A stretch of 44,404 nt of DNA, counting the filler, from Jimgerdemannia flammicorona (Eukaryota): NCBI GenBank assembly GCA_003990765.1. It is 2 parts of 2 records of this genome, joined end to end, with 100 filler letters (N's around TTAATTAATTAA, not from the genome) between each part and the next. Parts side by side here need not be neighbours in the genome. Positions count along the whole stretch, not along the records: positions 1 to 22,161 come from RBNJ01001326.1; 1 more part is not named here. One strand, written 5' to 3'. How positions within the stretch are numbered: position 1 is the first letter of the stretch; each line of letters opens with the position of its first letter. This document shows positions 1 to 40,646 of the stretch, in pieces. The notes below the pieces were generated by a model. It was given only the letters and a program-made list of their open reading frames with translations, had not been told where the DNA came from and did no database searches. The position numbers and the translations under genes were made by a program.

Positions 1-659
1 ACAAATGCTTAAATTCGAACGTACATATGTGATATGTGTTGTGAAAACGGAGGTTGTTTATTATTTTATTGATTGTTAGCGAACGCACTTTTACGCGTGC
101 CGATTGATGACGATTACAAGATGACGTCTACATTGATGACGTACACATTGACTGCGCCACTAACGAAGTGAAATCAGGAAGTAGCTCACAATCTCTTTGA
201 CAGTGATTTTAAGAGCAGGCATTTCTCCTAAGTATCACAATTCTTTTTTTAGATCAAATGACTTTTGACACAGATATCTCTTTGAAATATATTAAGCAGA
301 CTTGTCTTTTATTTTTAACTTAGATTTTAGACTAAGATTTATTTACTCAAATCTTTAAAATATTTTATATATGTGTGATTGCTGTCTGTATACTATTAAG
401 ATAATTATAGAATATACAGTAAGGCTAGTTTAGAGAAGATACAACTACTTTTTCTCTTGGAGAATAAATGTTTCTTAAGAAAACAGGTGTTTTCTCAGAG
501 AATAGAGGAAATAGTATATTCTGATTTAATATATCTAATTATTTATTCAAATTTATAAATAGCAATTCTTGGTTACTCAGCTTTAGTGCTCTGAATGAGT
601 CAATCTGAATCAAATCTGGATTTGATTCATCACATGATGGTTTGATCTGAATCTCAAAT

Positions 660-930
660 CCAAAGCCATCTGAATCACCTATCTGAATCACCTCATCTGA
701 ACTACTCTATCCAAACCACTTAATCCAAATTACTCAATCTGAATCACTCAATCTGAATCACTCAATCTGAATTACTCAATCTGAATTACTCAATCTGAAT
801 TACTCAATCTGAATTACTCAATCTGAATCACTCAATCTGAATTCTCCAATTCAAATTCTCCAATTTGAATCCTTCAATCTGAATCCTCATCCAAATCCTT
901 TAACTGAATCTTCCAATCTGAATCCTCTAC
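660..930 (+). repeat. Subterminal ~14-bp tandem repeats (AATCTGAATTACTC-like) of the outer hAT
   Basis: More than 15 degenerate copies just inside the left TIR. Same array at 8660-8920. Variants ATCTGA/ATCCAA suggest ancestral ATCCGA eroded at the CpG. Confidence 0.88.
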
Positions 931-1039
931 ATGACTCATATGCTAGATGTGTTCACATATACAATATATATATATATAAATATATGCATATATATGTAAA
1001 CATATAAATACATATGTTAACAAATCAGTCTTCAATAGT

Positions 1040-3073
1040 TGTAAGAGGGTTTACTTTTTAGGGTAACTGTTACATAGTTCTAGAAGGGTTTTCTGGAAGT
1101 TCTGGATATTCTGGAAGACTATTTTCTTAAGGTCAAGATCAATTTCATATGGAGTACATCCTCTATGCTTATTGATTTCAAGTTTGGGTTGATGTTTCAA
1201 CCAAAGTCCTTTTTTGGACTAGTTCTGGATATTTAGGATTTTCCATATTTCAGGAAGTTCAAGAAACTAAGACCAGCTTAGTTAAATTGGCATATTGCTG
1301 CAGACAATATCCAATTAGGAAATTTTGTAATGAGGTTAGGAGTGGGACCTAATAGGGAGCAGATTTACTTAAGAGTAGTTTATGGGTTATTAAATAGGTT
1401 TATTCATTATTTATAATATTGTTATACTAGGAGTAGTTGTGTGAAGGGATATTGTGGGAAAGTATTTAGAAGTTGTGTTCAGATTGTTCAAGTATTCAAG
1501 TCTGTAATTCTGAGGTTTGAGGGAGGGAGTATTTATACTAGTGAGGAGCTATCTGAACTATGCTGAATATGGATGTAGCACTTAGTGTCTTGCTGAGTCG
1601 AAATACAGTCACATAGTACAAGTGTGATCTGATATGTCAAGAGATCATCTGACTGCTGAGTCAGTTCACAGTCATATCATATAAGGCTAATCTAACTATA
1701 CTATGACTACTAAGCTATTTATAGATTTAGATACTATCTGGATAGTCTTCGATAACATCACTATCGATAGCATCATCTCTGATGAAGTAGTTGTCTAGGA
1801 AGAGTGGTTCACAGATTACTTCTCTTTGTTTACTGAGGTAATAATATATTGGAACTTCATCTCTATTCTACAAGATGGCATTGTCTGTCTCATATGCTGG
1901 GTAAGGTGTTGGTGGGTGAAGAAGGAGTGCATTATCTTCACTTTCATCAGATTCACTATCTATGTATCTTCTATAAGTTATATTGCTATAAGTCACAGAG
2001 TTGTAATAAGCTAGTGGCTGTGGTTTATGTTACTTGTACTTGGGTGGTAGAGTGGTTGGTTCAATATCAAGAGTTGTCTGAAGGTACAGGTTGTGTTCTC
2101 CTGTCTCTTCATTGTAGTTGAAATAATCAGGAGTGAATGCAGGTTGGTATTTGTGCCAGTGATCATTGTTCTAATAGGTCTCATAGATGGTGTGATCAGG
2201 GTTAGTAGAGATTCTTGGCTGGAGGTCATGTTGGCATCAGGGATCATTATTTTCTGCTTTGTCTTCATTGAACTGAATTATATTGTAGACATCCTTTATA
2301 GTATATCTAACTTGAGGCATTTGTAGAATATGGTCATTGGAGTGTGGGAAGATTCTGTCTGTGGTCTGAATGTATTTGAGGTACTTGTGGTTGAGTTCTT
2401 ATATCATATCATCGATTTGACCATAGGACAAGGTAGCAACCATTTCGGCAGTAGTAACTTAGAGGCAGGGGATAAAGGTGCTGTACTCATAAAAGAGTTC
2501 TCAATGTTTGTGGGCAATGAGTTTTTGGTATTAGGACATCTGAGTAATATCTGTATCATGATAGTATTTGACCATGTCTTCTAGAAGACAGCCAATCTGA
2601 TAGTAGCTTGAGATTTGTCTGATTCAGTAGGCTTCGCTAAGCATGTTCAGGGCATTCCATTGGGCTTCCACAAAGTAGAGAGGTGCTAGACTATGGATAT
2701 TCTTGAGGGATAGAGGGGGTATAGCTCAGTTGACAATGGCATTCTAAATGTCAGTGCGGATATGGTTGTAGATCTCAGTGGTCATGTTTGTGTATGTTCA
2801 AAAGTTGTAGTTATTGTTTGTTTTGGTTCTTCATTTGATGCATCTTGATGCTCAGTATATATACATTTAGTCCTGATTGGTAAGATTCTGTTTGTATGAA
2901 TCTTGTATTCCATGACTTTATGTTGACTCAGCTTTGTATACTGTGACTTCAGTTTGACTCAGCTTCATGATTTAGCAGGTGATTTCCAGATTTGTTTGAA
3001 GGTCGCATGTGATTTCAGTGGCTTATTTGAGAGTAACATGTGGTTTTGGTGGCTTGAAGGTTGTGCACTTACA
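1040..3073 (-). mobile_element. 2.0-kb solo LTR, copy A
   Basis: TGTAAG...CTTACA termini. 5-bp TSD ATAGT/ACAGT (1035-1039, 3074-3078). Absent at the homologous site of the inner hAT (about 9036-9040). TATAAATA box on the minus strand at about 1529-1536. Confidence 0.88.
1719..2785 (-). pseudogene. Decayed ORF of unknown function inside solo LTR A
   Basis: Frame MTTEIYNHIRTDI*NAIVN*AIPPLSLKNIHSLAPLYFVEAQWNALNMLSEAY*IRQISSYYQIGCLLEDMVKYYHD... Stops are attributable to single transitions. Colinear with the ORF in copy B; one frameshifting deletion near 2190. Confidence 0.68.
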
Positions 3074-5789
3074 ACAGTTCACAGTACTGATGATGCTTTA
3101 AGTCAAATATCTCTGATAGTTCTATACCTTCTATACAAACCTTGTTCCAAAATTTGACAACATTGTGCTAAGACAAGAGATGATGTTATTTGTAACTATT
3201 ACAGGTAAAAAATTAAGATATACCTATTGATATAACTGACACTTTTTGTTTAACACACATATGATACTGTTTCATCTACCCCCATAAACTGTACCAGCCA
3301 AAAGTTCAAAATACTTAATGGTATAACTTTGAACATATATTGATACATAAAAGACAAATACTCTAACAAAATCAAAAAGAATACAGAGACAAATAAAATC
3401 AACATTCAAGCTATGGTAAGTATATTTATCTAATTATCTGACCATTTCTATATCAATAACTCTATTTAATTAAAAATATTTAGCCATACTCTTCAGTAGA
3501 ATTTCAAAATCAGCTTATTCACTAGATTGTATATACAGACCAGCTATTCACAACTATTGAGAGTGATCAATTGCATAGCATCTTTGGCCTCCTCAAGTAT
3601 GATTTATATTAGCTAAGTACCAATACTATTCACAAAGATGTCCTAGAGACCTATAAGAAAGAGCATGACAATCTCTGCCAGATACTTCAGGTAAAATAAG
3701 GGCAGCACTGTAACCTTTGTAAGCTGAATTATATATATATATTTATAAAGAGCTCACCAATTTAACCTCACATTCAATAAGCAGAATTTGGCAGGCAAAA
3801 TTTCATTTATGATTAACACATGGACATCTCCTAATGTAATTTCATTTCTGAGCATTATTGGTCATTGAATTGACCTCGATTGGCAGCTTAAATCTCTCAC
3901 CCTTAACTTCATCAAACTTGCTGGCCCTCATTCTGGAGAGAACATTACAGATGCTTTTATTAGTTATATCCAGGAGCTTGGAATTACAACCAAGGTAAAA
4001 AAGGGGGGCTTGCTGTCAGGTTGGCATTTTGAGAGAGATCTTAAAACAAACAGATTTTATTGGTTATTTATTTTCATATAAATTGGCTGACTGGATATTT
4101 CAAGTATAGATTTTGGCCATTATGATGGACAATGTTACAAATAACTTAACATTTTTCAAAGTTTTAGCAGGCAGCCTCAAATAGGAAAATGTGGCCTTTA
4201 GTACAGAAAGCTGCCATGTATGATGCCAGGCCCATGTATTAAATCTTACTATTCAGGACTATCTTATATACATAGACAAAACATCTGAGAGAGGAGAGAC
4301 CTGAAGTATAGTTTCCAAGCTGTACAAACTGGTTGTGTTGGTCCAATCATCTCTACAATAATGAGACAAATTTGCTGTGCAATATAGAGCAATCAGTTTA
4401 GCTCTGAAGGAGCTGATATTAGACATCTGTATATATTAGAATTCAATATTTACAATGATCCAGTGTGTGCTGGAGTTTGCTATAGTATGTATTCTTTTTT
4501 TTTTGGTCAGCTGAAGCAACTTGTTTCAGATGATTGAGGAATTTGTTTTTTTTTTTATAAATAAAAAAACAAAACAAGCCAATAGATTCAATAATTGCTG
4601 TTGACAAGGAAATGCAGGGTGAGGCACTAGGTAAAAGCAAGTAGAACATACTTAGGAATGTAGTTAGAGTTTTGGAAGTAAGTGGTAATTACTCTAGCCT
4701 CACACTCATTTTGTCTGCCTCCATACAATATAATATCTCACTGCACATAACTGCCAATGTTTTGATGACTATATAAAGAATATAATTAAACAAATGACTC
4801 TGACAATAAGTTCTGCAATACTAGTATACAATATTCTGATTGACCAGCTAGAGGACAAGCTCAAGAATAGACTGTAGGGTTGTGGTGATTTATAGTTAAG
4901 CCTGGATCAGAGAGATACTATAGAGGTTGCTCTAAGCAAGCTCAGAAAATACTACTCCAAAACAGATACTGTCATATATATACTCAATCAGTATAGATAT
5001 GTTGGTGTGTGGTCATTATCTCTTCCAAAAACAGAGAAACTCCTACAAAAACTCACTCTCTTTCTCTAAGCAGTGCTGGACCCATACTTAAAGCTATAAT
5101 ACTATAAAGACCAGGGCTGGGAGCAGCACTTCATTGAGAGAACCAAGCAGGCTATAATTGAAACATACTAGAAAAACTATACACCACTATAAGGTTCTGG
5201 CTAAAGTCTGGACAAATATGCTAAGGGATCCCTCCTGTTCCACATTTACTTCAGCAAAAAGAGGAAGAGAGAGCCATCAGTGGAAGAGCTGCTGTCAATA
5301 GATGAACTCACCATTTACCTTACCAGTGACTGCATGATCCTGCTGGAGAGCACAGAGGTGCTCAACTGGTGGAAGATGGGCTGTCAGGCTGGCAGTTGGT
5401 TGTATTGGGTCAATTTAATCCACCATTCTAACCACTGCTCTATCCACCAGAGCATGCAGCTACATCAATAGACTTCTCCAGCCTGTGTGGTATAGCTTGG
5501 AACTATCTGGTGATTCCTGTCTCCAGTACTCCCATTGAGCGAGTGTTCTCAGGTGGAGTGGATCTTATTGCCCCTAAGAGGTATGCACTGAATACTAAGA
5601 CTATCCAGGCATGTATGTGTCTGAAATCTTGGTGGGGCTCAGGCTGCTAAAATTCAGTGGGTCCTGGGGTTTGTGAATGAGTTAAATTGATATTGTAGAT
5701 TATTTAATACTTCAAAATTAAAAAGAAAAAAAAAAAACTTAGGACTTGGTCTGGAGTTTGCAGTCTAAGTAGGGGCAGTAATCAGTGGG

Positions 5790-6235
5790 GTTAGCAGTGG
5801 CAGAGGGAGCACACAAAATTTGTGGCCCTCCATCAGCAGTAGGGGCAGCCCCAAGCTATTAGTGCCCAGATCAGTAGAGGGAGTATGCAAAATTTGCAGC
5901 TCTCTACTGGCAGCAGAAGCAGCCCCAAGCTGCAAGTGTTCAGGATAGAGGAATTGGTAAAGAGAGTACATAAAATTTGCAGCCCTCTGCCAGCTGCATG
6001 GAGCACCCCCAAGCAGCCTATGTCTGGGCTGGGGGTCAATAGAGTTGATAGAGGGAGTGTGCAAAATTTGCAGCCCTCTGCCAGTAGTATAGAGGCAACC
6101 CCAAGCCACCAAGGAGTTTGAGTCCAGATCAGAGAGTACTTCTGGTGGTTGGAGGGTACTTCTGGTGGTCAGAGGGTACTTCTGGTGGTTGGAGGGTATT
6201 TCTGGCAATTGGAGGGTACTTCTGGCAGTCAAAGT
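5790..6235. repeat. Internal repeat array of the hAT (TGCAAAATTTGCAGCCCTCTGCCAGCAG..GGCAGCCCCAAGC units, then 20-bp GAGGGTACTTCTGG units)
   Basis: 4 long units and about 5 20-bp units between the convergent transposase and passenger genes. Homologous array at 13920-14520. Confidence 0.85.
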
Positions 6236-6455
6236 CCACTATATATTCAGACTCATTGCTGGTTCAGGTCTCACAGACACCCTGGCCCTGTGCCATAGTA
6301 TACTGTAGAGTAGGGCCAAGGGGCCAGTAGGGCCCAGCATAATGGCTAAACTAGTGCTACAGAAGAGGTGCCCAGCTACCAGCCCAACTCTCTACAAAAG
6401 ACTATCTAATCTACACAAAATGACTACTAAACTCTTATGAAAGGTTATCTAACCC

Positions 6456-8587
6456 TTACAAAAACTGCTCCATCTGCTGGTTCCAGGCCTTGATGAGTCT
6501 GTCATCCATTGTGAGTGCAACAACTATTGTATCTGAGCTCTCCTCAAAGGTGACAGTGCTGTGGTGGTCATGTAATTAAAATAGGACAGCCATGTTGGCC
6601 ACAAATGAAACCCTGAAACTATAGATGAGGTCACACTAGACTCTGTTACTATTCTTCCAGGTTGGGCCCTTCCTTTCTGGAATGTAAAACATTACTAGAG
6701 TGATGTTGTTGTCTGTGTATGTGGGCAGAGAAATATTGTACCTGATATATCCTGATGTGATACAAGCATACATTTGGGTGAACCCTTGGCCCAGGATCTC
6801 ATACTGCCAGGCTGTGCTGGTGGATGCCTACTCTTGGTACAGCTCCAAGAGCCCCAGCTTGGAAACCTGCCAGATAGATGGTATTTGGTCAGTTCTTTTT
6901 GCATGCAAGGGGGCAGAAACCCCCTGGGCTGTAGCACTGAAAAAGTGGAGCTCCTTATCTCATATGGCATGCTAAATTGTGCCAAGAATATATATATAGC
7001 TATGCTGAGATCACCACCAAGTTGCCCTACTATATGCTCTACTAGTCTGCTCAAAGAACTCCAGATCATAGCTACTATCACTATATAGGTTATGTCATAC
7101 TTGTGTACAGTTTGCTCTTCAATAGTACTTCTAAAGTTCCAGTAGGGGTACAGAATCTTGTGCATCTCTGGAATTGTATCAAAAAAGAGTATGTCAGCAG
7201 AGAGAGTGATTATCTGGGGAGGTGGAAAAAAAAGAGAGATAAGTATAGGGGATTTTAGAACTCTGGAACCCACCCTTCTCCAGTGTTGCAGTATATCCAA
7301 TTTCTATCCAAACCCCCCCTCCTTGCATTTTTCACCCCCTCTTTCCTATTATCTAGTATTTGATGCAATCCTTACAAATCTTATTAATGTGGTAGTGAAG
7401 CTTATTACTATAGAGATTTCTTATCATCATCACAACCACCTCTCTATAATTATTAATAAAGATATAGTTCTTTTCATCATTGGTTACTCCTGCTGGCCAA
7501 TGGACCCCTCAGTCAAGAGTGATTGGCTCTGATTCAAATGTAGACCCCCAAGTCTTGATGATAATGCTGGTACTGCTTATGCTGAACATCTTGCCCTCAA
7601 ATTTCTCTATTTGATCAGATATCAGACATAGTTGAACTCAGGTAACTTTGAACTCTCCTTTCTAATAGAACTGAGTCCTGATCTGAGAGACTGAGATAAG
7701 TATGCAGATGGGTTGCATGTAGATGGGTTGCATGTGGATGAGTTATATGTAGATGGGTTGTATACAGATGGGTTACATATAGACAGGTTGTATGTAGATG
7801 AGTTGCATGTGGGTGGGTTGTATGCAGATGGATTGTATGTAGGTGTGGGTGTTTTTTAGAGGGAGACCACATAAGAAATAAAGTTAAATAAAATACAGAG
7901 ATGGGTATTTTAGAAAAAGAGCATAAGTGAGTGAGTGAGTGAGTTACATGCCAATGAGTTGCACTGTAAGTTGCACAAGTTGCATGAGTTGCACAAGATT
8001 GCTCATGAAGGCTTACTTTTATTCCTTTTGAGATCTCCACCATGTGATGCATTGACTCAATAGCTCAGCCACCAAAAGTATGCTCTACAATATCTACCAG
8101 CCTTTCTTCATCTTGACCAGATGTTGTAAATAAAGTCAGCAGATCTCACCATAGAACTGTAGACTCTAAGAAAAGCATAAGGTGAATTGGATCATGCTGG
8201 GGAAATTTAAATAAATATAAGTGAATAAGTAGCAGTAGAGTGAGCAACCTACATCTACTATCAGCTGCTTCAAAAAGGCTGCCATATACATAGCTGTGAG
8301 GTCTATAAATTCCAAGGTCTGAAGGGCCACCATGAGTTGTTGCTGGAATTCTCCCTCATCCCTGCCATTGCTACCACCATCACTATTGCCACCACCATCA
8401 CCACTACTATTGTCCCTTTGGCTCTCAATGAGCAGCTTGTGTGCTGCCCATATGAGAAAGAATCTAACATTGTCAGCAGAGAGTGTATTTCCACCTCAAA
8501 TACTCTCTCTTTTGATAATCATTGCAGGATAAAAAATGAGTAGACTGGACCAACATACAATTAAGAGCTGCTGTTTTGTTTGCTCAT
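6456..8587 (-). pseudogene. hAT passenger gene, about 510 aa, 6 exons, putative TET/JBP-like 2OG-Fe(II) dioxygenase (outer copy)
   Basis: Exons about 8587-8559, 8510-8253, 8196-8017, 7682-7274, 7213-6959, 6866-6456. GT-AG junctions are phase-consistent from exon 2 on; one donor is mutated to AT here but is GT in the inner copy. C-terminal ..YNISLPTYTDNN..V*CDLIYSFRVSFVANMAVLF*LHDHHSTVTF..; the inner copy has HTD at the first motif. Confidence 0.7.
7700..7850. repeat. 15-bp minisatellite (TGTAGATGGGTTGCA-like) in an intron of the passenger gene
   Basis: About 10 copies here, fewer at 16000-16090. Lies between the predicted exon 3 donor (8016) and exon 4 acceptor (7683). Confidence 0.8.
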
Positions 8588-11555
8588 GATATGGTAGTAG
8601 TGCTCTGAATAAGTTAATTTGAATCAAATCCAGATTCAATTCATCACATGACAGTTTGATCTGAATCTCAAATATGAAACCATTTGAATCAACTTGGATT
8701 AATCTGAATTACTCTATCTGAATTGTCTCATCTGAACCACCCAATCTAAACCACTCAATCTGAATTACTCAATCTGAATTACTCAATCTGAATCACTCAA
8801 TCTGAATTCTCCAATTCAAATCCTCTAATTCAAATCCTCCAATTTGAATTCTCCAATTTGAATCCTTCAATCTGAATCCTCATCTGAATCCTTCAACTGA
8901 ATCCTCTAATCCAAATCCTCCACATGACCCATATGCTGGATACATCTATATATATACACAATATATATATATGTATATAAACATATGTATGTATATGCAA
9001 ACATATAAACACACATATCAACAGATCAGTCTTCAACAGTTCACAGTACTAATGATACTTCAAGTCAAACATCCCTGATAGTTCCACACCTTCCACATAA
9101 TCCTCACTCCAAAATCTGGCAATATTGTGCTAAGATAGGAGATGATGTTATTTGTAACTATTACAGGTAAAAAATTAAGATGCACCTATTGATATAACTA
9201 ACACTTTTGTTTAATATACACATGATACTATTTTATCTACCCCTATAAACTGTACCAGCCAGAAGTTCAAAATGCTTAGTGATACAACTTCAAACATATA
9301 TCAATATATAAAAGACAAATACTCTGACAAAATAAAAAAGAATACAGAGATAAATAAAATCAACATCCAAGCTGTAGTGGGTATATTTATTCAAATTGCC
9401 TGACTATTTCTATATCAACAACTCTGTTTAATAAAAAATATTTAGTCATACTCTTTGGTAGAATTTCGAAATCAGCTTATTTACTAGATTGTGTACACAG
9501 ACCAGCCATTCACAACCATTGAGAGTAATCAATTGCATAGCATCTTTAGCCTTCTCAAGCATGATTTATATTTGCCAAGTACTGATACTATTTACAAAGA
9601 TATCCTGGAGACCTATAGGAAGGAGCATGACAATCTCTACCAGATATTTCAGATAAAATAAGAGCAGTACCATGACCTTTGCAAGCTGAATTATATATAT
9701 ATATTTTTATAAAGAGCTCACCAATTTAACCTTATATTTAATAAGCAGAATTTGGCAGACAAAATTTTGTTTACAATCAACACATAGACATCTCCCAATA
9801 CAATTTCATTTCTGAGTATTACTGGTTATTAGATTGATCTCAATTAGTAGCTTAAATCTCTCACTCTTGACTTTGTCAAACTTGCTGGCCCTTATTCTGG
9901 AGACAATATCACAGATGCTTTTATTAGTTGTATCTGAGAGCTTAGGATCACAACCAAGGTAAAAAAGGGGGGCTTGCTATCAGATCAGTGTTTTGAGAGA
10001 GGTTCTTAAACAAAACAGATTTTATTGGTTATTTATTTTCACATAAATTTGCCAACCAAATATTTCAAGTACAGATTTTGGCCATTACAATAGACAATAC
10101 CACAAATAACTCAACATTTTTCCAAGTTTTAGTGGCCAGCCTCAAATAGGAAAACATGGTCTTCAGTACAGAAAGCTACTATATGCGATGTTAGGCTTAT
10201 ATAGTGAACTTCACTGTTCAGGACTATCTTACATACATAGACAAAACATCTGAGAGAGGAGGGGCTCTGAGTATAATTTCCAAGCTGCACAAACTGATTG
10301 TATCAGTTCAATTGTCTCCACAATGATGAGACAAATTTGCTGCATAGTATAGGGCAATCAGTTTAGCCCCAAAAGAGCTTATATTGGACATCTGTATATA
10401 TTAGAACTCAATATTTACAATGATCCAGTATGTACTGGAGTTTGCTGTAGTATGCATCCTTTTTTTCTTCAGTTAGCTGAAGTAACTTATTTCAAATAAT
10501 TGAAGTTTTTTTTTTTAAAAAAAAAAAAAACAAAAAAAGCCAATAGATTCAATGGTAGCTGCCAATAAGGAAATATGGGGCAAGGCTCTAGGTAAAAGTG
10601 AGTGGGATATACTTAGGAATGTTGTCTGAGTTTTGAAAGTAAGTAGTGATTGCTCTGGCTCCACACTTGTTTTGTCTGCCTCTGTACAATGCAATATCTC
10701 ACTACATATAACTGCCAGTGTTTTGATGATTGTATGAAGGATATAGTCAAACAAACGATCCTGATAATAAGTTCTGTAATACTAGTATATAATCTTCTGA
10801 TTGACTGGCTAGAGGACAAGCTTGAGGATAGGCTAGAGGGTTGTAGTGATTTATAGTTAAGCCCAGATCAGAGAGATGCTATGGAGGTTACTCTAAGCAA
10901 GCTCAGAAAATACTACTCCAAAACAGATATGTACCACCATATACTCAATCAGTAAAGGTATGTTAGTGTGTGGCTATTACCCCTTCCAAAATAGAGAAAC
11001 TCCTACAAAAACTCACTCTCTTTTCTCTTAACAGTGCTGGACCCACACTTAAAGCTATAATACTATAAAGATCAAGACTGAGAGCAGCACTTCATTGAGA
11101 GAACCAAGTAGGCCATAATCAAAGTATACCAGAAAAACTATATACCACTATAAGGTTCCAGCTGAAGTCTGAATGAATATACTAAGAGATCCCTCCTGTC
11201 TCACATTTACTTCAGCAGAAAGAGGAAGAGAGAGCCATCAGTGGAAGAGCTACCATCAATAGACAAACTTACCATTTATCTTACCAGCAACCATGTGATC
11301 CTGCTGGAGAACACAGAGGTACTCAACTAGTAAAAGGTGGGTTGTCAGGTAGGTGTTGGGCCAATTTAACCCACCAATCTAACCACCACTCTATCCACTG
11401 GGATGTGCAGCTGTGTCAAACAGACTTCCCCAGCCTGTATGGTATAGCTCAAGACTATCTGGCAATTCCTGCCTCCAGTGCTCTCATTGAGCAGATGTTC
11501 TCAGATAGAGTGGACCTTGTTATCTCAAAGAGGTGTATACTGAATGCTGAGACAA

Positions 11556-11644
11556 GGGTGGGCACAGTGTATTATATAGAGGATAGATAGTGTGTTAATA
11601 AAGAAAGGAGTCTAAGTATCTATAAAAAAAAAAAAAAAAAAAAA

Positions 11645-11677
<33 letters not shown>
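11556..11677 (+). mobile_element. 5'-truncated LINE insertion (3' UTR stub plus poly(A))
   Basis: 15-bp TSD TGAATGCTGAGACAA (11541-11555, 11678-11692) and an A tail of about 55 nt. Body resembles the 3' end of the LINE at 44330-44404 (..TTAATAAAG..GGAGTCTAAGT..CTATAAAA). Confidence 0.9.
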
Positions 11678-11679
<2 letters not shown>

Positions 11680-11731
11680 AATGCTGAGACAATCTAGGTG
11701 TGTATGTGTCTGAAGTCATAGTAGGGCTCAG

Positions 11732-13766
11732 TATAAGTACATAACCTCCAAGCTACTGAAATCACATGCCACCCTCTGAACAAGCTACCAAAATTACATG
11801 CAACTCTTGAATAAATCTGAAAATCACCTGCAAGATCATGAAGCTGAGTCAAACCAAAGTCACAGCATATAAAACTGAGCAATATGAAGTCATAGAACAT
11901 AAGATTTATACAAACAGAATCTTACCAATCAGGACCAAATGCATATATACTGAGCACCAAGATGCATCGAAACAGAGAACCAAAACAAACCAAACACATA
12001 ACTCCAACTTTTGAATATATACAAACATGACTACCAAGATCTACAACTGTATCTATACTGATATTTGGAATACTATTGTCAATTAAGCCACACTCTCTCT
12101 GCCTCTCATAAATATCCATAGCTTAGTATCTCTCTACTTTGTGGAAGTCCACTGAATTGGACAAATCTCAAACTACTATCAGATCAGCCACCTCCTGGAA
12201 GACATGGTCAAATACTATCACAATATAGACATTATCCAGATGTCTCAATATCAGAAACTCATTGCTTATAAATATCAAAAACTCTTCTATGAGTTTAGCA
12301 CTGTTATTCTCCATCTCTGAGTTACTACTACCAAAATGATTACTACTCTATCCTATGGCCAAATAGATGATATAATATAAGAACTCAACCACAAGTATCT
12401 TGAGTATGTTTAGACTACAGACAGAACCTTTCTGTATCCTAATGACCATATCCTACAAATGCCTCAAGTCAGATATGCTATAAAGGATATCTATGATATA
12501 ATCTGATTCAATGAAGATGAAGCAGAAGACAATGATCCCTCTGACACCAACATGACCTCCAGCCAAGAATCTCTACCAACTCTGATCACTCCACCAATCT
12601 TGTTGATGAACTTATAACAGTTTATAACTACCTATGAGACTTATTGGGACAATGACCACTAGCACAAATACCAATCTGCATTCATTCCTAATTACTTCAA
12701 TTATAATGAAGAGACTGAGAACACAACTTGTACCTCCAGACAACTATTGAGATCGAACCAACAACTCTGCCACCCAAGTATGAGTAATATAAACCACAGC
12801 CATCAGCTTACTACAATCCAGCAACTCATAGTGCCATAACTTATAGAAGGTATACAGATAGCAAATCTGATGAAAGCAAAGATAATGCACTCTTCCTTTA
12901 TCCACTAATACCTTACCTAGCATATGAGACAGATGATGCTATCCTGTGGGATGGTGATGAAGTCCCAATATATTATTACCTCAGCAAACAAGGAGAATTA
13001 ATCTGCAAACAACTCTTTCTAGATGACTACTTCATTAGAGATGATATCATCAAGTGATATTATTGAAGATTACCCAGACAGTATCTAAATCTATAAATAG
13101 CTTAGCAGCCATAGTATTAGATTAGCCTTGTATAACATAACTATAAACTGACTCAGCAGTCAGACAATTCCTTGACATATCAGATTACACTTATACTACA
13201 TAACTGCATTCTGACTCAGTAAAGTACTAAGTGCTACATTTATATTCAGTATAGTCCAGATAGCCCCTCACTAGTATAAATATCCCCTCCCCCAGACCTC
13301 AGAACCTCAGACTGGAACAATCTGAACACAACTTCTGAGCACTTTCCCACAACACCCCTTTATACAACTACTCCTAGTATAGCAATATCATAAATAGCAA
13401 ATAAACCTATATAATAACCTACAAACTACTCTTAAGTAAATCTGCTCTCTATTAGGTCCTACTCCTAACCCTATCATGAAACTTCCTAATTGGGTATTGT
13501 CTGTAGTAATACACTGATTCAACTAAGCTGGTCTTAGTTTCTTAAACTTCCTGAAATATGGAAAATCCTGAATATCCAGAACTAGTCTGAATAAGGACTT
13601 TGGTTGAGATATCAATCTGAACTTGAAATCAATAAGCATAGAGAATATACTCCATATGAAATTGATCTTGATCTTAAGAAAATAGTCTTCCAGAATATCT
13701 AGAACTTTCAGAAAACCTTTCAAAACTATGTAATGATTACCCTAATACATAAGTAACCCTCTGATA
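11732..13766 (+). mobile_element. 2.0-kb solo LTR, copy B (same family as 1040-3073, opposite orientation)
   Basis: Exact 5-bp TSD CTCAG (11727-11731, 13767-13771). Termini TATAAG...CTGATA (TG>TA, CA>TA). Empty site in the outer hAT at about 5638-5642. TATAAATA at about 13275. Confidence 0.9.
12027..13096 (+). pseudogene. Decayed ~350-codon ORF inside solo LTR B
   Basis: MTTKIYNCIYTDIWNTIVN*..LLEDMVKYYHNIDIIQMSQYQKLIAYKYQKLFYEF..FNEDEAEDNDP (2-nt insertion vs copy A) ..DLQPRISTNSDHSTNLVDELITVYNYL*..ILWDGDEVPIYYYLSKQGELICKQLFLDDYFIRDDIIK*YY*RLPRQYLNL*. Confidence 0.7.
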
Positions 13767-13919
13767 CTCAGGCTGCTAAAATTTAGTGGGTCCTATAGAT
13801 TCATGGATAAGTTGGTTGGTCTTATGAAATATTTAATATCTTTAAAAAAAAAAAAAAAAAAAAAACCTGAGGACTTAGCCCAGAGTTTGTAGCCCAAGTG
13901 GGGCAGTAGTTGGCAGAGT

Positions 13920-14520
13920 TGATAGTGGTGGCAGAGGGAGTATGCAAAATTTGCGACCCTCTGCCAGCAGCAAGAGGCAGCCCCAAGCTATTAGTGCCTG
14001 GATCAGCGAGCAGGTCAGTGGGCAGATCAGTGGGCACAGGGTTGGCAGAGAGAGCATACAAAATTTGCAGCCCTCTGCCAGCAGCAAGAGGCAGCCCCAA
14101 GCCACAAGTGTCCAGGACAGGGTGTTAGCAGGAGGGGGGTAGGTGGAGGGAGCATAGAAAATTTACAGCCCTCTGCTAGCAATGAGGGGCAGCCCCAAGC
14201 TGTCAGTGCTCAGGTCAGTGGGTGGAATTGGTTGACAGAGTTAGTTGGCAGGGTTGGTGGGCATAGGGTTAGTGGAGAGAGCATGCAAAATTTGTGGCCC
14301 TCTACTGGCAGTGAGGGGCAGCCCCAAGCTATAAGTATCTGGGACATATGGGCAGGCAGAGGGAGTGTGCAAAATTTGCAGCCCTCTGCCAGCAGCATAG
14401 GGGCAGCTCTAAGCTGTCAAAGAGTCTGAGTCCAGGTTAGAGGGTACTTCTGGCAGTCAGAGAGTACTTCTAGTGATCAGAGGATATTTCTGGTGGTTGG
14501 AGAGTGCTTTCAGCAGTTGA
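13920..14520. repeat. Internal repeat array of the inner hAT
   Basis: 5 units with the CAAAATTTG core followed by GCCCTCTGCCAGCAG..CAGCCCCAAGC, then 20-bp units. Confidence 0.85.
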
Positions 14521-14758
14521 AGTCTATCACAGATTCAGGTCCCATGGGCACCCTGGCCCTGTGCCACAGTACTATACTGGCAGCACTGCAGAGCAGGGCC
14601 AAGGGGCTGATAGGGCCCAGCATAATGACTAAACTAGTGCTACAGAAGAGACACCTGGCTGCCAGCCCAACCTGCACAAAATAACTGCCTAACCCTCATG
14701 AAAGATTATCTAACCCTTACAAAAGATTACCTAACCCTCACAAAAGATTGCCTAACCC

Positions 14759-16838
14759 TCACAAAAACTGCTCCACCTGCTAGTCCCAGGCCTTGATGAG
14801 CCTATCATCTGTTGTAAGTATGATGACTATTGTGTCCAAGCTCTCCTCAAAGTTGATGGTACTGTAGTAGTTGTGTGATTGGAATAGAACAGCTGTATTG
14901 GCTATAAATAGGACCCTGAAACCATAGGTAAGGTTGTACCAGACTCTACCACTATCCTCCCAGGTTGGGCCTTTCCTTTCTAGGATGTACAATATTACTG
15001 GGGTGATGTTGTTGTCTGTGTGTGTGGGTAGAGAAACATTGTGCCTAACATATTCTGATATAACATAAGCATATAGTTGGTAAACCCTTAGCCCAGGACC
15101 TTGTACTGCCAGGCTGTACTGGTGGATATTTGCTCTTGGTCCAGCCCCAGGAGCCCCAGCTTGGAAATCTACCAAAACAGATGGCAACTGGTCAGTCCTT
15201 TTTGTGTACAGGGGGGCAGAAATCCCCCAGACCACAGAAACCTCCCAGGCTGCAGCACCCAAAAAAAGTGGACCTCCTTACCTCATATGGTATGCTAAAT
15301 TGTGCCAAGAATATATGTATAGCCACACTGAGATCACTACCAAGCTGGCCTGTCATATGCTCTATCAATCTGCTCAAAGAACCCCAGATCATAGCTGCCA
15401 TTGCTACACAAGCTATGTCATGCTTGTATGTAGTTTGCTTTTCTAAAGTTCTGGTAGGGGTATAGAATATTGTGCATCCCTGGAATTGTATCAAAAAGAG
15501 TATGTCAATGAAGAGTGTGATTTATCTAAAGAGGAATGAAAAAAAGAGAGATGAGTGTGGGGAATTTTGAAACTCTGAAACCCACTCTTTGCCAGTGTTG
15601 CAGTATACCCAATTCCTGTCCAAACCCCCCCTCCTTGCTTTTTTCACTCTCTCTTTCCTGCTATCTAGTATTTGATGCAATCCTCACAAATCTCATTGAT
15701 GTAGTAGTAAAGCTTATCACCATAGAGGTTCCTTACTACCATTGCAATTACCTCTCCATGTTTATTAATAATGATATGGTTCTCTTCATTGTTGGTTACT
15801 CCTGCTGACCAATAGACTTCTTGATCAAGAATAATTGGCTCTAATTCAAATATAGACCCCCAAGCCTTGATGATGATTCAAGCTGAACATATTGCCCTCA
15901 AATTTCTCTATTTGATCAGATGCCAGACATGATTGAACTCAGGTAACTTTGAACTCTCCTTTTTAATAGAACTGAGTCCTGATCTGAGAAACTAAGATAA
16001 GTATATAGATGGGTTGCATATGAATGAGTTGTATATAGATGGGTTATATGTGGATGAGTTGCATGTGAATGGATTACGTGTAGGTGTGGGTGTTTTTTAA
16101 AGGGAGACCATGTAAAAAATGAAGTTAAATAAAACATAGAGATGGGTATTTTAGAAAAAGAGCATGAGTGAGTAAGTGAGTGAGTTATATGCTGATGAGT
16201 TACATGCTGACAAGTTATACAAGTTATATGAGTTATATAAGATTGCTCACAAAGGCTTACTTCTATTCCTTTTGAGACCTCTGCCATATGATGCATTGAC
16301 TCAACAGCTCAGCCACCAAAGATATGCTCTGCAATATCCACCAGCCTTTCTTCATCTTGACCAGATGTTGCAAATAAAGTCAACAGATCTTACTGTAGAG
16401 CTGTGGACCCTAAGAAAAGCATAAGGTGAATTGGGTCATACTGGGGAAATTTAAATAAATATAAGTAAACAAGTGGCAGCAGAGTGAGCAACCTACATCT
16501 ACTATCAGCTGCTCCAAAAAGACTGCTGTATATATAGCTGTAAGGTCTGTGAATTCTGAGGTCCAAAGAACTGCCATGAGTTGTTACTGGAATTCTCCCT
16601 CATCTCTGCCATTACCACCACTATCACCATCACCATTGCTACCACCATTGCCACTGCTATTGCCCCTTTGAATCTTGATGAGCAGCTTGTATGCTGCTCA
16701 TATAAGAAAGAATCTAACATTGTCAGCAGAGAGTGTATTTCTACCTCAAATACTCCCTCTTTTGATGATCATTACAGGGTAAAAAATGAGTAGACTGGAC
16801 CAATATATGAATTAAGGGCTGCTGTTTTGTTTGCTCAT
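14759..16838 (-). pseudogene. hAT passenger gene, putative TET/JBP-like 2OG-Fe(II) dioxygenase (inner copy)
   Basis: Last exon lies in ORF 14780-15262: ..LYAYVISEYVRHNVSLPTHTDNNITPVILYILERKGPTWEDSGRVWYNLTYGFRVLFIANTAVLFQSHNYYST.. HTD at 15014-15022; ATG at 16838. Confidence 0.7.
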
Positions 16839-18174
16839 AATGTGGTAGGAAAGAAAAAAGAATAAAGAAAAAGAACAAAGAAAGAACAAAAGAAGAGAGA
16901 GAAGAAAAAGGAAAGGGTGATGTCACCAAAGATTTCAATCTGGATGAATTAATCTGGATCAGATCACAAGATCAATCTAAGTTAATTCAAATTTATTACA
17001 TGACAAATATGAATTGAATCTCATCTAGATCAACTCTATCCATTTGGAGCACATGTGGCAGGAAAGAAAAAAGAACAAAGAAAAAGAACAAAAAAAGAAC
17101 AAAAGAAGAGAGGAAACAAAAGAAAGGGTGATATCACTAAAGTGTAGTAGAAAAAAAAAACAAAAGCAAAAATGAACAAAAGAAAGAGTGATGTCACTAA
17201 AGATTTCAATCTGGATAAATCAATCTAGATCAATCTGGATCAGATCATGAGATCAATCTGAGTTGATTAGAATCCATCACATGATAAATCTGAATTGAAT
17301 CTCATCTGGATCAACTCCATCCATTCAAAGCACTACTCAGCTTGGATGAGTGGGTTGATTCTGAAAATAGAATAATATTGAAGTCACAATAGCTATCAAA
17401 TTGGTCACCTAGATAGTCTTAGTTTCTTATTAAATATATCTATAATAATAGATTAATATAATAAATATTAAATGTAAAATAAATTCATTTATATAAAATA
17501 AACTAATATTATAAATCTTACTATAAATAATATTTATATAAATAGTAATAATTAGTATTAATTCTATTCTTTTATTATAATTTATAATATTTATAATATA
17601 AGTAAAATTAAAGTACTCTGATTAGTATTATTTTTTTAGATATTATAAAATATAAAAGATATTGCAAAATTTCAAGATATAATAAACTAATCAGATCTCA
17701 TTAGTAGATGACATTTTAAGCTAACTAAATTTCAGAATCTAAATATTGTTTTTTATATAATTAGAAAATATTATACAGTTTAGTTAGCTTCAAAATATCA
17801 TCTATTAATAATAGAATATAGTTAAAAATCAACTATATAATATACTATCTATATAATTATTTCATTAGGTTCCAATTAGATATGATGTCTGTTATTATAT
17901 ATTTTGACTCTGTAAGTTAACTTTATATAATATACTAATTTTTATTCAAACTCAATAACTAATAGTAGGAGTAAGCAGTCTAATTGTCTTATCATATTTG
18001 TCTACTATATAGTAGTTATTGAAATCCCTAGAATTTGGATTACATCTCAATATACAGTAGTGCAGCCAATTCTTAACTATATCATCAATCAATATGCATT
18101 AAAGTACATATTCTGTAATTAATAATAAACAACTCTCTTCTTGCAAGCCTTTTCTGAGTATTTCATAATAAAAG

Positions 18175-18871
18175 ATTATGAGCCCTGCTTAGTAACTATA
18201 CACCCCTCTAACATATATGCTACACTATACCATAATGTCTAATAATACTAGTAGTACAAGCAGTGTACCAAGCTCTGGTAATATAGGTAGAAAAGATACT
18301 GGTATGGGTATGGCTCCTATTACAATGGTCATGATGATGACCATTCTAGTGGTAGTACTAACAATAATAGCAAAGAGGATGATTCCTGTTTTTGATAGTA
18401 AGGACTATGCTATATAGATGTACTCTATGAAGAATCTCCTAGAGAAATGTGGTCTGGAGGATTATTGGAAGCAATAAGTACAAATACTGATATATGATGC
18501 TATAAAAGATTGCAAAGTATTAAGGGAGATTATGTTCACCCTTTTGAATATGTAAATGAAGCTCATAATCAAGGCTATGATAGTAAATAAAGTCTGGGAG
18601 ATCTTACACAATTACTACCAATAGGCATCCACATCAAACAGATTCCATCTAAAGGTGCAACTATTCAATCTTCAAATGAAGTCTAAGAAGAGTATCTGGA
18701 ATTATGTCAACTATGTTGATGATCTAACAAATCAAGTGAATTCTCTTATATCTATGATGATAGACACTATCAAGGATGAAGACAAGGTCCTGGCCCTTAT
18801 GCAAGGTCTTCCTGAGGTATACAATGTGGTTGTCACTACTATGCAGGAATCTGGCAAGCTATCAGACTATA
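18175..18871 (+). mobile_element. Ty1/Copia relic: PBS-like site and gag (UBN2/Retrotran_gag_2-like) fragment
   Basis: GATTATGAGCCC resembles the GGTTATGAGCCC Copia PBS. Peptides IPVFDSKDYAI*MYSMKNLL and QLFNLQMK..SIWNYVNYVDDLTNQV..IKDEDKVLALMQGLPEVYNVVVTTM. Cut off by the Tc1 insertion. Confidence 0.75.
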
Positions 18872-19903
18872 TAGTGAGAGTCATAAGTGTACCAATGTTT
18901 TATTATTTTTACTTTTTAAATTAATTATAGCTTATATAAAAATATTATTGAAGCCATTTTTTAACCAGTAATAGAATAGGTTTAGAACTTCTAAATATAT
19001 TAGTTTTGCCTTATTTGGATAATTACAAATAAAGTTATTACTATTTAAAGTTATATTAATCATTGGTATACTTATGGCCCTGATGGTACCTGAATCACTT
19101 TATTCATAATAATTAATATTTGGTGTATTTTCCCTTAGCTTTAATTACTGCAGCAATGCACCTCAGCATACTCTCCACCAATTTGACACAAATGTCTTAC
19201 GGAATACCATTCCATTCATCCTCCACCCACTCTCACAACTCCTCCATACCATTCAGCAGTGTTTCGTATATGCTGAGCTTCCTCTTGAGATGGCACCACA
19301 AATGCTTGATTGAATTGATATCAGGGGATTGCACAGGCCAGTCTAGATGTGAATAGAATGATCAGCAAGCCATTTGGAAGCTACCTTGGATGTATGCTTT
19401 GGGTTGTTATCTTGTTGGAATATGAGCTTCTTCCTGTCTATCTTAAAAAACCAGATGGATTTTTGCAGCTCATTGGCAAGAATGCTCATATAGAGCTCTG
19501 CATTCATTCTACCATCGATCTGGCATGCATAGCCTATACCATGGTAATTCATGCAACCCCAGACCATCACCAATCTGTCACTGAATTTGATGGTCCCTTT
19601 CACATGGCAGTCAAGTAGTGTCATACCTGGCTTCTTCCACATCCATTGATGTCTGTCAGACCCAAAACGATTGATCTTTGTCTTGTCTGAAAAAATGACT
19701 CATTTCTAGTTATCTAGAGTCCAATATTGGTACTTAAGGGCAAATTTGTAATGTGCCTTGACATGATGCTTGAATAACATAGGCTTCTTCTGCTTGACGG
19801 CAGCCTTCAGACCTGCTTGTTTCAGTGCCTGGCATATGGTCTTGGTGCCAATGGATGGTTTCCCTTCTTCTTCTATAGTTTTGGTGACTATTGTGGTAGT
19901 TTC
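18872..19903 (-). mobile_element. Tc1/mariner (DD34E) transposon, 3' portion with transposase pseudogene 19113-19903
   Basis: VIFSDKTKINRFGSD, VMVWGCM, IFQQDNNPKHTSK, DWPVQSPDINSIKHLW..AVIKAKGKYTKY*. Probable terminus TA|TAGTG (from CAGTG) at 18870-18876. Interrupted at 19903 by a Gypsy LTR. Confidence 0.9.
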
Positions 19904-20694
19904 TGTAATAGAACGAGCGAACAGATGGGACGAGACGAGCGATCACGTGACCCGGCGAGCGATGACGTCATCATACGATCGAGCGTGACATATGAATAGC
20001 GAGTGACGAACGATGCGAAACGACGCGGAAAACGATATCCAGCTTATCCCCAACAATCGGCGCCGCAGCAACAGTTGCCATAGCTGCTGATCATTGCCTA
20101 GTAATTGAGGTCCTGATCACAAAGTTGTTTTTGCCAAAAACCACCTGACAAAGGTCGCGATCACAAACCTCATTATAGTTACCAAATTAGTCACTCATAC
20201 TTAGTCAGAAATCGCGGACCAACTTGTATAAATACCCCCCAGTTTCCATCCAAAATAAATCAGTCCTTGATACAAGAATCAAGTCCCCCCCCACACACAC
20301 ACATTCCTCTGAGTCTTAGTAATGACATCTAAGTGACTCTAGTGTTTCTGACTAAACTCCAGAAGCCTAGCTAACTTCTGCCAGAACTAAGACCAGTATA
20401 TAAATCCCTAAAGACTTAAGTAAACCCATTGAACCTGAATTCCAAGGCGAATTCAGTCTGTGTACAGCAAGGAACAAGACCCTCAAAATAGGGCACAAGA
20501 GAAAGACCTTTGAAACAGAAGACAAACCAGAAAGACCTTTGAAAGATAAGGCACTGCCGCTACAGCTACTTAAAGTGAGCACTTCCTCAAACTGAAGGCT
20601 TCTTGGTACACATTGTGTACTAAGTCCCTAAGTAATAGTCCACTTCCCTAATTATCCAAAGGATAAGAGAGGGGTAGAAGTGAGAGTTATTACA
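19904..20694 (+). mobile_element. 5' LTR (about 790 bp) of a Ty3/Gypsy-type retrotransposon
   Basis: TGTAATA...TATTACA termini and TATAAATA at about 20227. Followed by ACT-TGGTAGCAG (PBS-like) and a gag frame. Confidence 0.85.
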
Positions 20695-20795
20695 ACTTGG
20701 TAGCAGCAGATTACCAGCCAAGAAGGCACCAAAGAACACACTCCTGAAGTTGGAACAAGACCAACCTTGGACAGGAGTAACCCCCAGAACCAACT

Positions 20796-22161
20796 GTGGA
20801 TCCTCAAACCAGAGCCAGGGAAGCCCTTGCCATTAGGACCAGGTGGTTCCAGGAAACCACAGACATAGAGACCTGCCAGCTTGTAATTGACCAGGCCTAC
20901 AGGGATCTATACCAGGCCTTTAGGACATACCACCCAGGACTTAGGAATATTGTTAGCCGCCGTAGGTTCTACCAACTCCTCCGAGGACACATTGGAACTA
21001 CTAGGACCCCAGAATCTACTGCTGCAGCCACCTAGGATTTTTTAGATTATATCACACCCCCTGCTGCAAAAGAAGCAGCTGCCGAGTGGATTGCCTCTGA
21101 CAGATATCATCATACTTCTACCAAGACCTCCCTCTACTACAGGCTAGTTGTATACTATGCCTCTGCCATAACTAGGTACGAGAACGAGCAAGCAGGCCAA
21201 CCATCCCCTACTGCTGAACAAGAAGCAGGTCCATCTACTCAGCCAGAGACTGATATCCTCTTTGAAGGACCTAGTCAGTATGAGGACGCACTATCTCATC
21301 AGAGAAGGGAGTCAGACGAAGACTCTACAGGTTACCAGTCTGACGATAGCCAACGAGGGACAGCAGGCCTAGGAATTTACCAAGGGACCACAGGTCAAGA
21401 AGATCAGACCCCAGAATCAACCCAGCCACCTACACAGAGGTTTGGTTTACCCTCTCTCACAGGACTCTTTGACTTAATATCCGGGAACCAAGTAACCCCA
21501 AGTCATACAGCACCACAACCCCACCAAGCAGAACAATCTCCAGGAGAATCTACCCCAACAGGCCCACCACCAATAGTCAACACAATGGTAGATGCCAATA
21601 TTGCAGCACTGACTACCCAGCTAGCAGCACTAGCAGGGATAGTAGGACAGATTGCTGAACAGAACAAACTAACCAAGACCTTGCGAATCCCAACATTCAG
21701 TGAAAAAAACAGCGACATCGAAAACTTCATCAATGCAGTTGATACAGGCTACCAAGCAAACCAATGGAATGACAACCGAGTACCTATAGGAATACTCACC
21801 AACAACCAGAACAGCACCCTTCAATAGCTGTTTGCCACATCAGCAGCACAAGTAGAAACAGTAGCCACATTCTTCACTGGAACAGCAGCCAAATTCTGGC
21901 GAACCTTAGAACAACACCCAGTAACCTGGGAAGCCCACCCTCAAGTCAATGGACAAGTACCTGGCAACAATAGACCAGGTTGAGATGACCACGAAGCAGG
22001 GCCAGGACTCAAGGTCTTGCTACTGACCAAATTCCGAAATGCAGCCTATATACAAGAAACTTGGAACAAACTATCCCAGATGAAGTTCCACAAGAATGGC
22101 GAAGAAGATCTAGAGACCTTTGCCACCAGAATGGATGCCTATCTCAAAACCGTTGGACTTA
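20796..22161 (+). pseudogene. Ty3/Gypsy gag with long N-terminal extension, truncated by the gap
   Basis: ORFs at 20796, 21585 and 22017 share one frame separated by isolated stops. Capsid-like IPTFSEKNSDIENFINAVDTGYQANQW..VATFFTGTAAKFW..LLTKFR..LSQMKFHKNGEEDLETFATRM. Confidence 0.8.
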
Positions 22162-22261
22162 NNNNNNNNNNNNNNNNNNNNNNNNNNNNNNNNNNNNNNN
22201 NNNNNTTAATTAATTAANNNNNNNNNNNNNNNNNNNNNNNNNNNNNNNNNNNNNNNNNNNN
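22162..22261. other. Assembly gap with artificial six-frame-stop linker
   Basis: N-run, TTAATTAATTAA, N-run, 100 nt in total. Adjacency across it is not guaranteed. Confidence 0.95.
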
Positions 22262-22731
22262 TTGTTTGCTGAAAGTAATATGGATTACAAAACAATAAAT
22301 ATAATTTTACAATAAATATATCTTATATGAGTATCTAATACTATTTACTATATATCAATCAAAAATTAAAGCTTTGTGAGAGGGTATGGGACATACATTT
22401 ACTATTGGCCAACTGGATACAACCTACTATGTGGATTTTAAGTAAATATCTCCCAATTGTTATATTGATTCAGATGGCTCAAAAGTTGTATACTTATATA
22501 ATAAATTTAGCTATTTCTATATTATATGCTCCTATCTTGTATATATAAATTAAATTAAATTTCTTAGACTGAGATAATATAATCAAGATACATATATACT
22601 TAACTTATTTTTTAAAGAATTTATATTTTTAAGTTTTATATATAACTTATATTTTTAAAGATTAAAATATTATTCATATATACTAATAGAAAGAGAAAGA
22701 TTTACTCTTTAAATATAAAGTCTAAAAAGTA
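22262..22731 (+). repeat. AT-rich direct repeat, copy 1 (copy 2 at 34172-34731)
   Basis: First ~125 nt identical; the remainder differs by substitutions and short indels. Confidence 0.9.
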
Positions 22732-24030: not shown

Positions 24031-24087
24031 TAATGTGAGATATATCAGGAAGATGTTGTATCTTTTTCTTCTTTATAAAGTTTATTT

Positions 24088-24094
24088 TTACTAT

Positions 24095-24142
<48 letters not shown>

Positions 24143-30600: not shown

Positions 30601-30761
30601 ATTTTGGCAATCCACCACCACACATCGCACCCGTGATCGTCTCTAAAGTTCTCAGTCATAACTAATAATTGTTCCATGGTTTCATAGTTCCCATATCAAT
30701 CTCTTTCGGGATCATTTGGTACGTCGCAATAACTCTATTCCTCGTCTCTGTCGACCTCAGC

Positions 30762-40643: not shown

Positions 40644-40646
40644 AGA

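Follow-up and report, generated by a model that had tools for sequence, protein, structure and literature searches.

Two nested copies of a hAT transposon, each enclosing a spliced passenger gene within its own termini, are found in a 44,404-nucleotide stretch of the genome of Jimgerdemannia flammicorona (NCBI GenBank assembly GCA_003990765.1). This stretch, hereafter the window, consists of parts of two records joined by 100 filler letters, and its positions 1 to 22,161, which hold both copies, come from RBNJ01001326.1. One copy of the hAT family has inserted into the other, and both copies are dead. The reading favoured here, with a probability of about 60%, is that of a canonical hAT whose convergent passenger gene encoded a divergent TET/JBP-like (PE-like) double-stranded beta-helix (DSBH) Fe(II) dioxygenase, likely an anti-silencing enzyme, which no longer functions in either copy.

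The boundaries of both copies are set by the inverted repeats at their termini (TIRs) and by duplications of the target site (TSDs), and the positions of all parts are collected in Table 1. The TIRs of hAT elements start with (T/C)A(G/A)NG, and the TAGTGCTC termini of both copies agree with this consensus. The outer copy begins with TAGTGCTC at 584-591 and ends with AAGCACTA at 17328-17335, where the reverse complement of TAGTGCTC is read with one mismatch; this reverse complement also lies near 17046-17053. An exact 8-bp TSD, CTCAGCTT, surrounds this copy at 576-583 and 17336-17343. The inner copy begins with TAGTGCTC at 8598-8605 and terminates in GGAGCACA, which ends at 17053 (about 17046-17053); its TSD reads TATGGTAG (8590-8597) on one side and TGTGGCAG (17054-17061) on the other, and both mismatches are transitions. 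At about 16836-16850, the inner copy itself still shows the target site without the interruption. Duplications of 8 bp, as expected of hAT elements, thus flank the outer copy (8/8 identical), the inner copy (6/8), and a miniature inverted-repeat transposable element (MITE) elsewhere in the window (8/8). Likewise, the C-terminal dimerisation domain of hAT transposases is recognised in the transposase remnants of both copies, the outer remnant forming direct repeats with the inner copy. When the decayed transposase was read through its stops, none of the frames gave a Pfam match to the RNase-H-like DDE core or the BED finger. The order of parts is the same in each copy: short repeats in the left subterminal region come first, then a transposase on the plus strand, then the subrepeats of about 73 nt, and finally a minus-strand gene running toward the transposase. 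Each copy measures about 8.3-8.5 kb at present, including a secondary insertion of 2 kb.

The passenger gene lies within the TIR/TSD pair of each copy. Its presence between the TSDs of both copies shows that it moved together with the transposon. When spliced on the four exons that homology supports, the outer gene yields one frame, 391 codons long, in which 10 premature stops occur; in the inner gene, two deletions of 11 bp and an indel of 1 bp have shifted the frame. The introns are of the GT..AG kind; at the donor that follows 6959, the outer copy has AT and the inner one GT. Further 5' exons of the outer gene are possible up to 8587, the homology from relatives reaching four exons. Each copy retains one half of a putative metal triad: HTD is found at 15014-15022 of the inner copy vs YTD at 6711-6719 of the outer, and DHHST at 6555-6569 of the outer copy vs NYYST at 14858-14872 of the inner. 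An earlier sequence-only reading of this DNA had described a TIR/TSD-bounded hAT in two nested copies, a spliced gene convergent to the transposase in both, and half of the metal triad in each, and the anatomy given here agrees with it on all of these points, to the exact coordinates of HTD and DHHST, with homology backing for four of the six exons that it had proposed for a protein of about 510 aa.

The gene is real, and a small set of natural proteins resembles it. An exhaustive HMMER search with the 165-aa open reading frame (ORF) of the inner copy against 1.84 billion representatives (threshold E<=1e-3) matched five proteins, P0001 to P0005, all of which are metagenome or Logan predictions from contigs of at most 4.1 kb. 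For example, P0001 matches with E 1.1e-40 and 65% identity and P0002 with E 6.3e-22, and the 374-aa P0003 (E 1.1e-07) spans most of the protein. A sixth protein, P0006, was added by a follow-up homology search, in which the query P0003 matched only itself and P0006. Homology search with the 165-aa ORF against longer proteins found none, and the profile A2 retrieved nothing beyond P0003 and P0006. In tblastn on the window, residues 92-345 of P0003 are colinear over three exons, and the P0003 N-terminus falls on the fourth with a weak match (E 3.8); the same exon is matched by tblastx from L001, a JGI metagenome contig with an intact relative of at least three coding exons. L001 shares two introns with the window, one of phase 1 that splits the Gly codon ahead of 'MH' and one of phase 0 that follows '..Y-(E/L)'. 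Among phage genomes, tblastn with P0003 returned only rows of E 7-9, from Gordonia phages.

The metagenome contigs also inform on the distribution of the family. L001 (1-3666) and a second contig, L002 (1-2870), come from different samples and are 99% identical over 2.7 kb; the oxygenase gene is intact in L001 and once interrupted in L002. The cluster of P0004 counts 28 members on many contigs. Taken together, these contigs and the P0004 cluster suggest that a common, AT-rich eukaryote of the soil harbours an element in multiple copies. The DNA of L001 has 34% GC and a CpG observed/expected ratio of 1.2, so that the oxygenase family also occurs outside genomes with CpG depletion. Three ORFs downstream of the gene on the metagenome contigs carry no hAT domain, so that the linkage to hAT is seen in the window only.

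The two copies have decayed mainly through transitions. In an alignment of the passenger regions (6400-8720 and 14700-16960), 1819 columns are identical, 337 differ by a transition and 69 by a transversion, and 132 contain a gap. The CpG observed/expected ratio is 0.03 in 584-17335 vs 0.65 in 17336-37000. Where one ancestral CpG has decayed on opposite strands in two copies, the difference is expected to stand in a CA or TG context, and this is the case for 223 of the 337 transition differences, as expected of former CpGs. The 10 stops of the outer frame comprise five TGA, four TAG, and one TAA. When C or G is chosen at every transition difference, all three stops of the last exon disappear and the identity rises for P0001 (86/122 before, 104/130 after), for P0002 (44/112 before, 55/112 after), and for P0003 and P0006 as well. 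The proposal of the sequence-only reading that the stops derive from transitions and can be reversed to a protein is thus confirmed independently, both by the stops lost from the last exon and by the gain in identity to four relatives.

The metal triad is conserved across the family. In the alignment A4, which has 12 rows including decayed ones, HxD and a distal H-G-(T/S) are kept in all but the decayed rows, and every undecayed member carries HTD or HVD; the HxD...H triad put forward from the window alone therefore holds for its relatives. Further invariant residues of A4 are Gly, Gln, Thr, Val, Arg, Gly, Tyr, Val, Asn, and Phe, and an Arg that is likewise invariant occupies position +15 counted from the first His (R63 in P0001). 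Another Arg precedes the first His by 7-8 residues in the window copies, P0002, P0003, P0004, P0006, and L001; P0001 has Gly-His. In TET-family enzymes, NgTET1 Arg224 and TET2 Arg1261, a few residues before HxD, hold the C1-carboxylate of 2-oxoglutarate (2OG) (PMC7854593). Judged from sequence, the Arg ahead of the first His may correspond to NgTET1 Arg224, with a spacing that differs from that of NgTET1.

The ESM Atlas model and language-model features point to 2OG-Fe(II) oxygenases. P0001 occurs letter for letter in the ESM Atlas with a model of its own (pLDDT 0.69, pTM 0.59), and its 10 listed structural neighbours all have TM values of 0.54-0.63. Of the ten, seven are clusters in which Pfam families of 2OG-Fe(II) oxygenases occur, and one more bears the name prolyl 4-hydroxylase; one of the seven is a Basidiomycota cluster with Tet_JBP (PF12851) on 28% of its members. 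By language-model features, the nearest named cluster to P0001 is 'Tet-like 2OG-Fe(II) oxygenase', in which 72% of the members carry PF20515 (score 0.91, 178/256 features shared). PF12851 likewise occurs among the feature neighbours. Basidiomycota dominate the Atlas neighbours, which together with the short GT..AG introns suggests a fungal host.

The nearest described relatives would be the 'PE-type' TET/JBP-like proteins of fungal transposons. TET/JBP genes have been reported in 11 lineages of fungal DNA transposons, hAT among them, and an anti-methylation role has been proposed for them without experimental validation (Kojima 2025, Biology 14:1741; PMC12730594, used here in part, as are Table S1 of that paper and PMC7854593). 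The PE-type was tied to TET/JBP through similarity in the AlphaFold database to CMD1, NgTET, and CcTET, with e below 1e-5, and through HHpred values that are weak (PMC12730594). Compared by eye with Table S1 of PMC12730594, the window protein appears colinear with the PE-type. The N-terminal strand reads GEVIAMVVRNL in the window and GEIVAMVYRNF in Tuber, NYIF is common to the window protein and Morchella, and a GY(T/S)A motif occurs in both. Similarly, a 32-residue core, 'GG..(Y/F)....YG.R....AN..V...P.D.HGT', is of equal length in both, the C-terminal 'T..RL(I/V)K' is found in both, and the order of motifs is identical from the N-terminal strand to the tail. Both also have no Arg two residues ahead of the 'GLS' strand, are very remote from classic TET/JBP, and are carried within a DNA transposon. 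They differ by about four extra residues that the window family has between the conserved Arg and the first His. When 11 motif strings of the family were compared with Table S1, two occurred in TET domains, LHGT three times and NYIF once, all in PE rows, and the strings were absent from the PU and AG TET domain sequences of that table. The string LEPI matched a species name only, and a twelfth string, FHGT, is foreign to the family.

Several observations weigh against this reading. Four stops of the outer copy are common to the inner copy, and the source element may for this reason have lost the gene already when it moved, its source copy perhaps being defective in the passenger gene. Two of the shared stops are TGA where relatives carry Arg, Lys, Ala, or Trp, which a parallel decay of CGA to TGA may account for; for the shared TAG stops such an explanation is less easy. 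At E<=10, Pfam (Tet_JBP and 2OG-FeII_Oxy_6 included) gave no match for the window frames, P0001-P0006, or the L001 exons, in a search whose HMMER filters could conceal very weak matches. The kinship proposed by the sequence-only reading has indirect support only, from the Atlas look-alikes nearest to PF20515 and the colinearity by eye with the PE-type; the HMMER check it had suggested, against the TET_JBP (PF12851) and Tet-like (PF20515) profiles, finds no member of the family. In its second suggested check, AlphaFold with Foldseek against NgTet1 and CcTET, the two AlphaFold2 models are poor (mean pLDDT 38.6 and 44.4), and chains of TET, NgTET, CcTET, and CMD1 are absent among the Foldseek matches listed, for a model of low confidence. 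A sequence search of the PDB gave 0 matches with the profile A2 and chance-level rows only (coatomer, antibody VH) with P0001 and P0006. The top Atlas cluster of P0003 has PF20515 on 15% of its members at a score of 0.96, but its recognition value lies under the tool's bar, which makes the high score weak evidence. The likeness to the PE-type is a reading that carries no alignment statistics, and the PE-type hallmark is HxE, whereas the window family has HxD. Finally, an Arg or Lys about 10 residues past the distal His occurs in 0 of the 12 rows of A4, where Leu, Thr, or Val stands instead; this confirms, for every family member of the alignment, the caveat of the sequence-only reading that a canonical 2OG-binding Arg after the distal His is lacking.

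Some of these points could be accommodated if the passenger were a protein or small-molecule DSBH hydroxylase of the prolyl 4-hydroxylase (P4H) or PHD kind, captured from a host and without a role in DNA modification or in the transposon. In enzymes of the P4H type, the distal His is followed by a basic residue that binds 2OG, which the present family lacks. On the AlphaFold2 model with a pLDDT of 44.4, prolyl hydroxylases and cupins lead the Foldseek matches (best E 0.026, to a prolyl 4-hydroxylase), and the top rows are a Phytophthora prolyl 4-hydroxylase, a Trichoplax PHD, and human PHD2; however, a ranking obtained from such a model means little. Among the Atlas neighbours of P0001, clusters of P4H, HIF-prolyl hydroxylase, and 2OG-FeII_Oxy_3/5 share the TM range of 0.54-0.63 with the Tet_JBP cluster, and the missing Pfam match to Tet_JBP suits a hydroxylase as well. 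By features, on the other hand, a PF20515 cluster is the nearest named one for both P0001 and P0003, and the N-terminal half of the protein, foreign to P4H enzymes, is the part that runs colinear by eye with PE-type proteins. A captured hydroxylase is accordingly considered unlikely. Another view retains the TET-like ancestry and questions the cofactor: the protein would not use 2OG and would instead employ another co-substrate, as CMD1 does, or make another base modification, so that the PE-like group would form a distinct enzymatic class. TET2 Arg1896 and NgTET1 Arg289 hold the C5-carboxylate of 2OG (PMC7854593), and it is at this position that all 12 rows lack a basic residue. CMD1 cannot use 2OG and is without a basic residue for the C5-carboxylate (PMC7854593), and it is the best HHpred match of the PE-type, with E 1.4 vs 19 for NgTET (PMC12730594); in addition, the invariant Arg at His+15 could support a different mode of binding. 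Yet the residues that bind 2OG vary between subfamilies (PMC7854593), the Arg at His+15 or the one in '..DDRL' may simply replace the canonical Arg, and the alignment around strand VIII was made by eye. This view is quite unlikely. That the frame is not a gene at all, being a product of chance motifs in decayed repeat DNA, or that the gene is not part of the transposon, is extremely improbable. No open frame is left in either copy and no Pfam family is matched, but two natural proteins match independently (E 1e-40 and 6e-22), intron positions and phases are common to the intact relative, transition reversal raises the identity to all four relatives tested, and the gene sits inside its own TIR/TSD pair in both copies. 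The protein matches, the transition reversal, and the shared introns together refute a non-gene.

The favoured PE-like dioxygenase on a hAT vehicle has several counterparts. The sequence-only reading knew of no hAT vehicle for such genes, but 20 TET-carrying hAT7 families have already been published from six Puccinia species, which are rust fungi (PMC12730594). These resemble the window element in combining a vehicle of the hAT superfamily with a TET-type oxygenase and in the proposed role, an escape from methylation and hypermutation. They differ in having a 7-bp TSD and CAACGGTGGG-type ends, where the window element has an 8-bp TSD and TAGTGCTC ends, and in carrying a PU-type enzyme (with 'GW(R/K)K' and 'R.G.S.Q' motifs) and not a PE-like oxygenase. 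Moreover, in the hAT7 lineage P4 the TET gene is located upstream of the transposase in the same orientation, whereas the window gene is downstream and convergent. A hAT with a PE-type gene was not found in the part of PMC12730594 used here. The TET/JBP genes associated with KDZ (Kyakuja-Dileera-Zisupton) and Plavaka elements in basidiomycetes (Iyer et al. 2014, as summarised in PMC12730594) offer a further parallel, as an oxygenase gene linked to a transposase has there expanded as a mobile unit, but they differ in the transposase superfamily and in the oxygenase subtype. CMD1 of Chlamydomonas (PMC7854593) is similar in being a TET-family DSBH enzyme with HxD...H and with no basic residue placed for the 2OG C5-carboxylate; it has an alignable Arg410 that points away, however, and is a host gene, not transposon cargo. 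Neither a sequence nor a structure match between CMD1 and the window family was obtained. Thus the hAT vehicle and the proposed anti-silencing role are known already, and what is new is a canonical hAT with an 8-bp TSD and a divergent PE-like oxygenase. A bolder proposal, rather unlikely as a whole, is that the window gene, the five metagenome proteins, and L001 make up a fourth, undescribed type of transposon-borne TET-like proteins, a sister of the PE-type with HxD that lacks the Arg for the C5-carboxylate of 2OG and so may have another co-substrate, like CMD1, or another base modification, carried by a canonical hAT and present also in AT-rich soil eukaryotes without CpG depletion.

If the favoured reading is correct, the convergent gene of at least four exons would have encoded a protein resembling DSBH Fe(II) dioxygenases, a member of a small unannotated family whose closest described kin are probably the transposon-borne PE-type oxygenases of fungi. 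The enzyme would have oxidised a methylated DNA base, probably 5-methylcytosine, and the element may thereby have escaped both methylation-based silencing and CpG hypermutation. Such a defence would now be over in both copies, in which nearly all CpG has decayed to TpG or CpA and the genes are full of stops or frameshifts.

Table 1. Positions of the hAT copies, their parts, and related repeats along the window
Feature	Position	Strand	Description
Outer hAT element	584-17335		interrupted by the inner copy and a 2-kb secondary insertion
Inner hAT element	8598-17053		inside the outer element, directly upstream of the outer passenger gene
Outer transposase remnant	3244-5650	+	many stops; Pfam Dimer_Tnp_hAT (PF05699) E 2.9e-10, 1.4e-08 in a second scan
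Inner transposase remnant	9205-11590	+	many stops; Pfam Dimer_Tnp_hAT (PF05699) E 8.6e-06, 1e-04 in a second scan
Outer passenger gene	6456-8165	-	exons 8165-8017, 7682-7274, 7167-6959, 6866-6459; stop TAA 6456-6458
Inner passenger gene	14780-16409	-	exons 16409-16261, 15983-15586, 15479-15282, 15168-14783; stop TAG 14780-14782
Subrepeats of ~73 nt, outer copy	5793-6113		between transposase and passenger gene, whose 3' ends face each other; inner counterpart 13924-14421
Secondary 2-kb repeat in outer copy	1041-3069	+	flanks CAATAGTT / CAACAGTT
MITE, 424 bp	37580-38003		TAGTGCTC termini, exact 8-bp TSD ACTGTGCT, internal 132-nt inverted repeat

Other repeats accompany the two copies. The subrepeats between the convergent genes stand four to five in tandem, each with a palindromic core AGAGGGAG..CAAAATTTGCAGCCCTCT, and could serve as a terminator, an insulator, or transposase-binding sites. 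The inner copy has the 2-kb repeat of the outer one at another site (about 11779-13721) and in inverted orientation, the two being 80-89% identical; no protein family was found in it. Different sites, opposite orientations, and own 8-bp flanks rule out this block (1083-3027 and 11779-13721) as a part of the hAT, and it has entered both copies independently. The MITE keeps several CpGs, unlike the large copies, and may for that reason have inserted more recently, as a member of the same family or of a related one. Tracts of A and T homopolymers of 50-100 nt at 11620-11680 and 24092-24190 are mutually complementary, and the former lies at the junction of the inner transposase and the inverted 2-kb insertion.

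Elsewhere in the window, the region 37000-44404 has an extreme strand asymmetry, with a GC skew of +0.3 to +0.5 and a CpG observed/expected ratio of 0.11, and an RVT_1 reverse-transcriptase ORF is present at 42028-42849 (E 9e-20); the region is a retroelement with decay that looks strand-biased. Two weak minus-strand matches fall under the curated cut-off, namely DDE_3 (Tc1/mariner-type) at 19346-19699 (E 0.0017) and a Kelch-repeat domain at 31610-32086 (E 2.5e-05), the latter of which may be a host gene fragment.

Transposon-borne enzymes that demethylate DNA would represent a counter-defence against genome silencing. To the catalogue of 11 lineages published in December 2025, the present element would add a hAT vehicle of the canonical kind together with a very divergent oxygenase. 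Standard domain models miss this oxygenase, so that genome annotation probably lists too little of such cargo. The family is also a candidate for unusual chemistry, as the Arg that would bind 2OG is missing. The two copies of J. flammicorona display the end state of such an element, with CpG almost erased, which implies that the presumed protection did not last.

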